In this document: in pieces, positions 57,068 through 57,518 of the stretch
Layout: each line of letters starts with the position of its first letter
How positions within the stretch are numbered: position 1 is the first letter of the stretch
Assembly: GCA_964187785.1 (NCBI GenBank)
Contig: OZ076409.1
Coordinates: forward strand, 42,038,001 to 42,102,000
Length of the DNA stretch: 64,000 nt
Reading direction: 5' to 3'
From: Amphiscolops sp. MND2022
Lineage: Eukaryota
Position numbers and translations under genes: made by a program
Notes under the pieces: model-generated
The model's database searches: none
What the model was told of the DNA's origin: nothing
The model's input: the letters and a program-made list of their open reading frames with translations, nothing else

Positions 57068-57518
57068 CCGTAAAGAGGCAAGCCGTAATATCAAACCGGC
57101 AGCTTAGCTGGCACAACACTAAGCGGAGGTTAAAATTTTATAGTAGTAACCTCACTACTGTTAAAACGTGCCGAGGGGAACGATAAGTATTTTATTATTT
57201 CAGGGAAATAGGTGTGTGTTCCAGAGAGGAGGATTCGTAGTAAGGCCGTAAAAAGGCAAGTCGTAATATCAAACCGACAGCTTAGTGGGCACTAGCACTA
57301 AGCGGAGGTTAAAATTTTATAGTAGTAACCTCACTACTGTTAAAAAAGTGCCGAAGAGTAGGTTAATTATTGAAGCTTTAGTATATTTTATTATTGAGGA
57401 TCCGTTATAAGGCCGTAAAAAGGCAAGCCGTAATATCAAACCGGCAGCTTAGTGGGCACTAGCACTAAGCGGAGGTTAAAATTTTATAGTAGTAACCTCA
57501 CTACTGTTAAAAAGTGCC
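57068..57518. repeat. Three spaced copies of a roughly 105-nt structured element (57068-57172, 57244-57352, 57411-57518)
   Basis: Conserved cores separated by diverged spacers; stems GCCG/CGGC (GTCG/CGAC in copy 2), GCTTAGTG/CACTAAGC, GAGGTT/AACCTC, AGTAGT/ACTACT and GGCAC/GTGCC. Confidence 0.9.

Follow-up and report, generated by a model that had tools for sequence, protein, structure and literature searches.

A tandemly repeated RNA element, predicted to be pseudoknotted, upstream of env in Ty3/gypsy-type elements of Amphiscolops sp., and its possible role as a signal on genomic RNA

What is the sequence that is repeated three times in front of the env gene of an LTR element in Amphiscolops sp. 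MND2022, and why is it kept? The repeats lie in a window of 64,000 nucleotides (the whole stretch analysed; OZ076409.1, positions 42,038,001 to 42,102,000) from a genome of 1.07 Gb, and a first-pass annotation had read them as a structured RNA. The export, splicing and packaging of multi-ORF, env-bearing Ty3/gypsy RNAs in invertebrates are little described in the literature found. The repeat unit is short and supported by covariation; variants of it occur naturally, and a series of natural deletions uncouples it from env.

The host element is coded on the minus strand and has the PR-RT-RH-IN order, LTRs and fusion glycoprotein (PF24664) of a Ty3/gypsy element with an HSV/gB-type env. On the coding strand pol is followed by several small ORFs, the repeats, env, a MATH/TRAF ORF and a 1.5 kb LTR (Table 1). 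A search of the genome with env recovers families at 93-100% identity (the window element and f94), 66% (f66), and 50% and 44% (f718/f731 and f713/f733). The MATH/TRAF ORF possibly encodes a modulator of host signalling, and ORFs of 250-333 aa occupy its position in sister families. The antisense ORF has an acidic, Ser/Ala-rich N-terminus; it is present in the window element, f94 and f66 and was not seen in f718, f731 or f713. Behind the 3' LTR (window ~48090-53191, minus strand) PBS, gag and protease occur a second time. They match the 5' end of the element at 99.8% identity, and the arrangement is an insertion in tandem or as a dimer. A further LTR element, intact but lacking env (gag 471 aa, pol 1610 aa), is located at ~583-14100 on the minus strand, and its LTR copies, 11 kb apart, hold 29-nt tandem repeats.

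Table 1. Coordinates of the repeat units, unit 1 helices and neighbouring features in the window.
Feature	Position	Strand	Basis or remark
Unit 1 (5'-most in the RNA)	57412..57518	minus	sequence and covariation
Unit 2 (compensatory change in h2)	57245..57352	minus	sequence and covariation
Unit 3 (h3 of 6 bp; G-U in h1; 80 nt from its end to env AUG)	57067..57172	minus	sequence and covariation
Unit 1 P0, 5' strand	57518-57514	minus	predicted to pair with h3 loop 57459-57455
Unit 1 S1	57505-57501 with 57492-57488	minus	predicted
Unit 1 L1 (U)	57500	minus	predicted
Unit 1 S2	57499-57493 with 57478-57472	minus	predicted
Unit 1 A-rich L3	57487-57479	minus	predicted
Unit 1 h3	57470-57463 with 57454-57447	minus	predicted
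Unit 1 h2	57445-57427	minus	predicted
Unit 1 h1	57424-57412	minus	predicted
Splice-acceptor-like U-rich tract and YAG (AG = first two bases of S1)	57504..57513	minus	sequence; putative use
Splice-donor-like GTTAGT, ~25 nt before unit 1	57539..57544	minus	conserved; putative role
Acceptor-like site between array and env AUG	57034..57048	minus	not found in f94
Two predicted hairpins in first env codons	56899..56942	minus	fold; region also conserved in env-dead copies (2/119)
pol: RT, RNase H, integrase (Ty3/gypsy order)	60004..63999, continues past window	minus	domain matches
Antisense ORF, 214 aa	58805..59449	plus	also in f94 and f66
Small ORF, 131 aa	57898..58293	minus	no family
Small ORF, 114 aa (stop 45 nt upstream of unit 1)	57564..57908	minus	no family
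env, 715 aa, Monjiviricetes-type fusion glycoprotein	54839..56986	minus	PF24664, E=5e-31
MATH/TRAF-domain ORF, 300 aa, 3' of env	53306..54208	minus	PF22486, E=1e-11
3' LTR, ~1.5 kb, TG...CA, preceded by polypurine tract	51700..53191	minus

The repeat unit and its predicted fold

The element of about 105 nt reported upstream of env is indeed present in three copies, each 106-108 nt long and typically 107 nt, separated by spacers of 72 and 59 nt in an array between a small ORF and env. The repeat is not a product of chance: the genome contains an 18-nt core pattern 252 times in exact form and its reversed control not once. A DNA search for the unit, in which 40 of 140 candidates were scored, returned at least 111 matches. 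On the minus strand the predicted order is the 5' strand of P0, a U-rich linker, an H-type pseudoknot, and hairpins h3, h2 and h1. The pseudoknot is predicted to consist of S1 (5 bp), a one-U L1, S2 (7 bp) and an A-rich L3 of 9 nt. Hairpin h3 has an uninterrupted stem of 6-8 bp and a loop that would pair with P0 at the 5' end of the unit, h2 has a near-invariant 11-nt loop, and h1 is a 3-bp hairpin at the unit's edge. The helices run P0, S1, S2, S1', S2', h3, P0', h3' with no junction, and the loop of the inner knot pairs with 3' sequence and is wholly paired, leaving no L2B.

All of the helices listed in the first-pass annotation are found in the units, as is the replacement of GCCG/CGGC by GTCG/CGAC in the middle copy. 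Other details needed adjustment. The GGCAC hairpin loop is there, but the full loop is GGCAC+TAG in two copies and CT+GGCAC+AACA, on a 6-bp stem, in the copy at 57067; the inner H-type knot is present, but is better described as 5 bp, 1 nt and 7 bp than as 6 bp and 6 bp, since a 7-bp pairing is seen. Minus-strand AATAAA does occur in both window spacers but is not conserved, being present in only one spacer of f94 and in none of f66, and a poly(A)-signal reading was rejected for this reason. The plus strand of h2 in unit 1 resembles a sense-strand hairpin in a sister family (stem-TAA...ATCAAAC-stem), a likeness that may stem from chance or from inversion.

Covariation was assessed in an alignment of 28 of the 97 distinct units (two mis-registered rows among the 97 were dropped from the unit set), in which 93.3% of cells pair, compared to 28-50% in slid controls. 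Both sides are changed in 18 of 32 pairs (shuffle mean 7.3, with none of 500 shuffles as high, for 28 sequences), a count inflated by out-of-register rows in the outermost helices. In register there are 11 double compensatory pairs: one in P0, one in S1 (resting on a single old copy), four in S2, three in h3 and two in h2; because the rows are related by descent, these reflect events in few lineages rather than independent samples. The reading as a covarying structured RNA is borne out by these pairs.

The functional strand had been called ambiguous, and here the annotation can be replaced by a definite assignment to the minus, coding strand. Read on the minus strand, the one-sided changes that keep a pair and occur in at least ten copies give G-U (12, 27 and 37 of 127 distinct copies), and none of the C-A type exceeds five among the same copies, although one terminal paired position has 20 plain mismatches besides. 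In the standard geometry of an H-type knot L1 is a single base and an A-rich L3 follows S1, and only on the minus strand does the A-rich loop follow stem 1. Function on the plus strand was rejected on this geometry and the G-U polarity, even though plain, pseudoknot-blind folding prefers plus (z of -2.5, -2.9 and -1.6, versus -1.2, -1.3 and -0.6 for minus). We infer that the fold is present in cells, and that the near-invariant A-rich L3 and 11-nt h2 loop make tertiary or protein contacts.

Occurrence in one env clade and in a non-autonomous family

The loci examined have one to five units per array, and env sequence is present just downstream at 83 of the 84 listed unit loci, many of which overlap one another. 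In the families of this genome the unit is always directly 5' of env, 23-80 nt from its AUG; in f66, P0 is missing or weak in two of three units. In an env tree all of the unit-bearing rows fall in a single clade (100/99), separate from f718/f731/f713, and the unit marks one env clade, a reading that covers the clade members with available DNA (all but P0003, P0004, P0006, P0013 and P0015). Among seven metagenomic env loci the unit is present only in L113, a contig from another assembly, and was not found in the upstream sequence of L110, L111 and L114; L109, L112 and L115 are without upstream sequence. The diverged L113 unit (84 bits) accompanies an env that is 48% identical over the matched part; both sides of a pair are changed three times in its S2 and once in its h3.

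Searches with model R1 found no unit in sister families f718, f731, f713 and f733, nor at five distant loci of ORF182 (see below). The Rfam search proposed in the first-pass annotation, run with Rfam 15 on window positions 56000-59000 and on two sets of five loci, gave nothing relevant: ranked by E-value, the window and the first set have only weak matches to unrelated families, the second set has none, and no family reaches its gathering threshold, in keeping with an uncatalogued class. In IMG/VR the 18-mer has eight matches, none with the stems, and a longer pattern has none; the unit is present in 0 of 23 candidate viral env relatives, and a single prokaryotic match lacks S2 and is treated as chance. 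No description of the unit was found in the main texts of openly available papers. The unit is judged to be a genuine RNA fold that is new, with a function that probably belongs to a known kind.

Where the unit-bearing families have units, the sister families have other tandem structured arrays. In f713 (L123:8900-9560) and in f731/f718 (L071:2375-2699, L120) these are five to seven covarying hairpins in tandem, whose asymmetric internal loop is conserved. Within 881 nt the f713 array includes six AAGACA motifs, of the CTE type, and it has a 25-nt core that matches the genome 586 times. Among 18 loci sampled from the first 100 of the 586 matches, none pointed to an amplified non-autonomous family carrying the sister C array. 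A third repeat, the GGTTAGCAAG hairpin, precedes env in sister families (L071:3587-3939, and just upstream of env in L065 and L076), and from its sequence looks like the donor of stem-sequestered GT...AG introns of 39-75 nt.

At many unit-bearing loci only env residues 1-58 are left. Ten such loci (two of them in part) define non-autonomous elements of ~6.5 kb with the order LTR, PBS, MATH-like ORF182, a dead ORF, one to four units, env fragments, PPT and LTR; gag and pol are absent, and the env and MATH remnants are frameshifted. ORF182 (182 aa; Pfam E=0.008, Atlas 0.92) is the only long gene of this LTR family (L179:8745-9293, minus strand, and related loci), which has ~25 full-length copies at 87% identity or more. 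Its fixed changes are 5 synonymous to 11 non-synonymous, with no clear purifying signal. Young copies have LTRs that are up to 99.6-100% identical, the single copy examined for a target duplication has one of 4 bp, and by these sequence marks the family is recently active. A further 15 loci were picked because their ORF182 is closely similar. Units and paired LTRs are present in 14; one of them has a whole env again, and in older ones env is broken at other points. L204 is a recombinant, with a non-autonomous 5' half joined to a complete f94-type env and MATH ORF and no gag or pol.

The conservation of the unit in these elements is most apparent between two subfamilies that share the same env deletion. 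Fixed differences number 0/203 in the units, 4/57 in the inter-unit spacer, 6/44 in the 5' flank, 3/57 in the other flank and 31/299 in the dead env (Fisher p=1.6e-5 for units against adjacent sequence). The equivalent pairwise tests on older copies are not significant in four of seven cases (L207, p=0.73; L209, p=0.44; L212 and L218, p=0.06). Spacers are 98-100% identical to f94 in three of the ten non-autonomous loci, which indicates recombination in the region, a process that can homogenise units without selection. When a non-autonomous copy is compared with the window element, the units form the longest islands (131-135 nt) at or above 92.5% identity, the others being a TATA-containing LTR block, the LTR end with PBS, and the PPT. 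The unit-to-3' LTR distance is 3.9 kb in the window and 1.2-1.4 kb in the majority of non-autonomous copies. ORF182 is missing from the window and f94 elements and env from the non-autonomous ones, yet all of them keep the unit. Its behaviour is that of the PBS and PPT, as expected of a cis signal on genomic RNA.

Candidate roles on the genomic RNA

Copies without replication genes or an intact env keep the unit unchanged, and for that reason it is likely a mark on the RNA of the element itself, with the synthesis of envelope protein not its main task. The reading that fits best, to which we give a probability of about 0.45, is that the unit is a post-transcriptional cis signal, a docking site on full-length RNA for export or packaging proteins in the manner of a retroviral CTE or the musD MTE, with additional copies providing additional binding sites. 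Export is the favoured part of this reading, if only tentatively; packaging by itself is quite unlikely. The AAGACA motifs of the f713 array, at the equivalent place, also speak for the reading. Against it, the unit is itself without AAGACA and sits between pol and env, not beside the 3' LTR. The roles proposed in the first-pass annotation (subgenomic env RNA, IRES, 3' stabiliser, ribozyme) did not include export or packaging; those serving Env production, including an xrRNA for subgenomic env RNA, lose ground because env-dead non-autonomous copies keep the unit invariant.

The most substantial competitor, which we nonetheless consider unlikely, is control of splicing or 3'-end formation, in which the pseudoknot masks or tunes an env acceptor overlapping S1 and, decoy-like, sets the ratio of genomic to env RNA. 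Every lineage has an acceptor-like YAG at S1, its -3 position varying between C and T, including repeats of the unit 1 site at 57339-57337 and 57160-57158. A pyrimidine at -3 is seen in 94% of 54 distinct 16-mers, whose rows are kin, versus a background of 44%, and only the AG and U-rich tract are kept upstream in two f66 units. Acceptor-like sites have a density of 14-23/kb in the arrays and 4-5/kb elsewhere, a difference inflated by the repeats, and f94 has no other such site within 120 nt of the env AUG. A donor-like GT[TA]AGT is present in 45 of 53 distinct upstream regions, including those of f66. In the window element, f94 and f66 the stretch from the first unit to env is free of AUG. 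However, the intron from donor to first acceptor would span just 35-46 nt, a length not seen among the introns of the few host genes checked; the AG is far from h2 and h1; and env-dead copies, which could lose an acceptor, keep 107 nt unchanged. No link was found between a splice junction and the non-autonomous deletion.

The same acceptor-like site can be accommodated by an export or packaging signal. S1 would bury the YAG, and splicing there would remove P0 and shorten S1, so that the complete fold would be available only on RNA unspliced at that site. A more elaborate scenario, which we regard as doubtful, is that of a new compact RNA class: a double pseudoknot embedded in a splice acceptor, complete only on unspliced genomic RNA, which licenses its export and packaging. 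Such a 3'-located genome tag of env-bearing retroelements in invertebrates would be tunable by copy number, parasitised by the non-autonomous family, and replaced by unrelated arrays in the sister families.

An IRES or translation enhancer for env is distinctly improbable. The constant position directly 5' of env would suit such a role, as would the depletion of AUG on the sense strand; a spliced leader predicts that depletion equally, and the sister arrays are AUG-poor on the sense strand too, with significance inflated by repeats. The env frame opens four codons before its AUG, with an in-frame stop five codons before, and the unit is invariant where env is deleted and frameshifted. The env AUG and 40-codon remnant are nearly unchanged in non-autonomous copies (2/119 fixed differences), which, with the AUG-free stretch, may point to a translation or splicing role for the unit; the conservation of the env start may alternatively derive from two predicted hairpins (Table 1) or a translated peptide.

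Comparison with known systems

Self-cleaving ribozymes provide a first point of reference. HDV-like ribozymes share a P3-L3-P1.1-P4 core, hammerheads CUGANGA/GAAA motifs, and pistol ribozymes P2/P3 with GCG after the pseudoknot; pistol also combines a stem, a paired loop and an A-rich strand. None of these cores is found by inspection of either strand of the unit, and there is no Rfam ribozyme match, in agreement with the annotation's statement that the topology is neither hammerhead nor HDV. That the unit is a self-cleaving ribozyme of some new class, or at the DNA level a promoter in which L3 serves as a TATA box, is very improbable. The single-stranded bases are near-invariant, the stem, paired loop and A-rich strand recall pistol, and most copies contain TATAAAA; but self-cleavage of the sense strand, as a ribozyme would entail, would destroy genomic RNA, the covariation points to pairing rather than a DNA site, and L113 keeps the A-rich loop and not the TATA. 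The TATA reading was rejected on the last point.

The exonuclease-resistant RNAs of flaviviruses (classes 1 and 2) and plant viruses (class 3) are likewise compact, tandem, pseudoknotted units with pairing to the 5' end, and PMC8374639 describes tandem occurrence as frequent among them. A stable 3' subgenomic RNA left by such a structure could be an env message or a decoy non-coding RNA, useful to non-autonomous copies too, and the compact double pseudoknot, with its sharp 5' boundary pairing into a loop, would suit this. The role is improbable nonetheless. The class 1/2 fold described in PMC8374639 has a three-way junction, PK1 to the 5' end and a PK2 latch, whereas the unit has no junction and another helix order, on which membership was rejected. 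The class 3 fold, as outlined in PMC11702639, has a stacked P1/P2 stem-loop, an L2B network and an apical-loop pseudoknot to the 3' end; in the unit the inner knot pairs a loop with 3' sequence, and this loop, being wholly paired, leaves no L2B. From its topology the 5' strand seems not to be threaded through a ring, P0 is lost or weak in the two f66 units noted above, and AATAAA, a possible source of entry cuts, is not conserved. Were the unit to stall Xrn1, a retroelement would be shown to carry an xrRNA, of which there is no report in the literature found.

Type 6 (dicistrovirus IGR) IRESs, including 6c and 6f, are similar in size (~110-130 nt), in having two pseudoknots and in their intergenic location. 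In the account of these given in PMC13273307, PKI abuts the first codon, and the unit has no such arrangement; its last helix is 80 nt (window) or 23 nt (f66) from the AUG, a nested PKII/PKIII-like order is seen on the non-coding strand only, and the L1.1a and L1.1b internal loops of PKII were not found in the uninterrupted h3. Membership was rejected on the distance and the missing loops.

The host itself is closest to metazoan errantiviruses with an HSV/gB-type env, which combine Ty3/gypsy gag-pol-env with a class III-type fusion glycoprotein (PF24664), as described in PMC13524379. It differs in its length of ~16 kb and in having a number of additional ORFs, one of them antisense, together with MATH domains and structured arrays. 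The main text of that paper makes no mention of pseudoknots, IRESs, splicing, MATH, TRAF or RNA structure, and its tables may list the element's family.

The closest parallels for an export or packaging signal are the musD MTE, the MLV PTE and the IAP RTE, which like the unit are non-coding cis RNAs of LTR elements downstream of pol. The MPMV CTE and gamma-CTE are short and multimerisable, as is the unit, and tandem CTE copies act additively, more copies giving more activity, with AAGACA as the NXF1-binding motif (PMC4174252). The CTE is, however, a stem-loop with AAGACA loops, while the unit is pseudoknotted; AAGACA occurs zero times in the window and f66 arrays and once in an f94 spacer, and membership of the MPMV type was rejected since this loop is absent from the unit. 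Export by the MTE requires a pseudoknot and a kissing loop, according to PMC4588558 and PMC5767303, and elements of this kind can be acquired by recombination (PMC11379458). Pseudoknotting and loop-mediated long-range pairing are common to the MTE and the unit, where they are predicted from covariation in S2 and P0. The MTE is ~400 nt, single-copy and beside the 3' LTR of a mouse betaretrovirus-like element, and the unit is 107 nt, in one to five tandem copies, in the pol-env gap of an invertebrate-type Ty3/gypsy element. If the unit is an export or packaging tag, the biology of the CTE and MTE would reach far beyond mammals, in the form of a small new fold.
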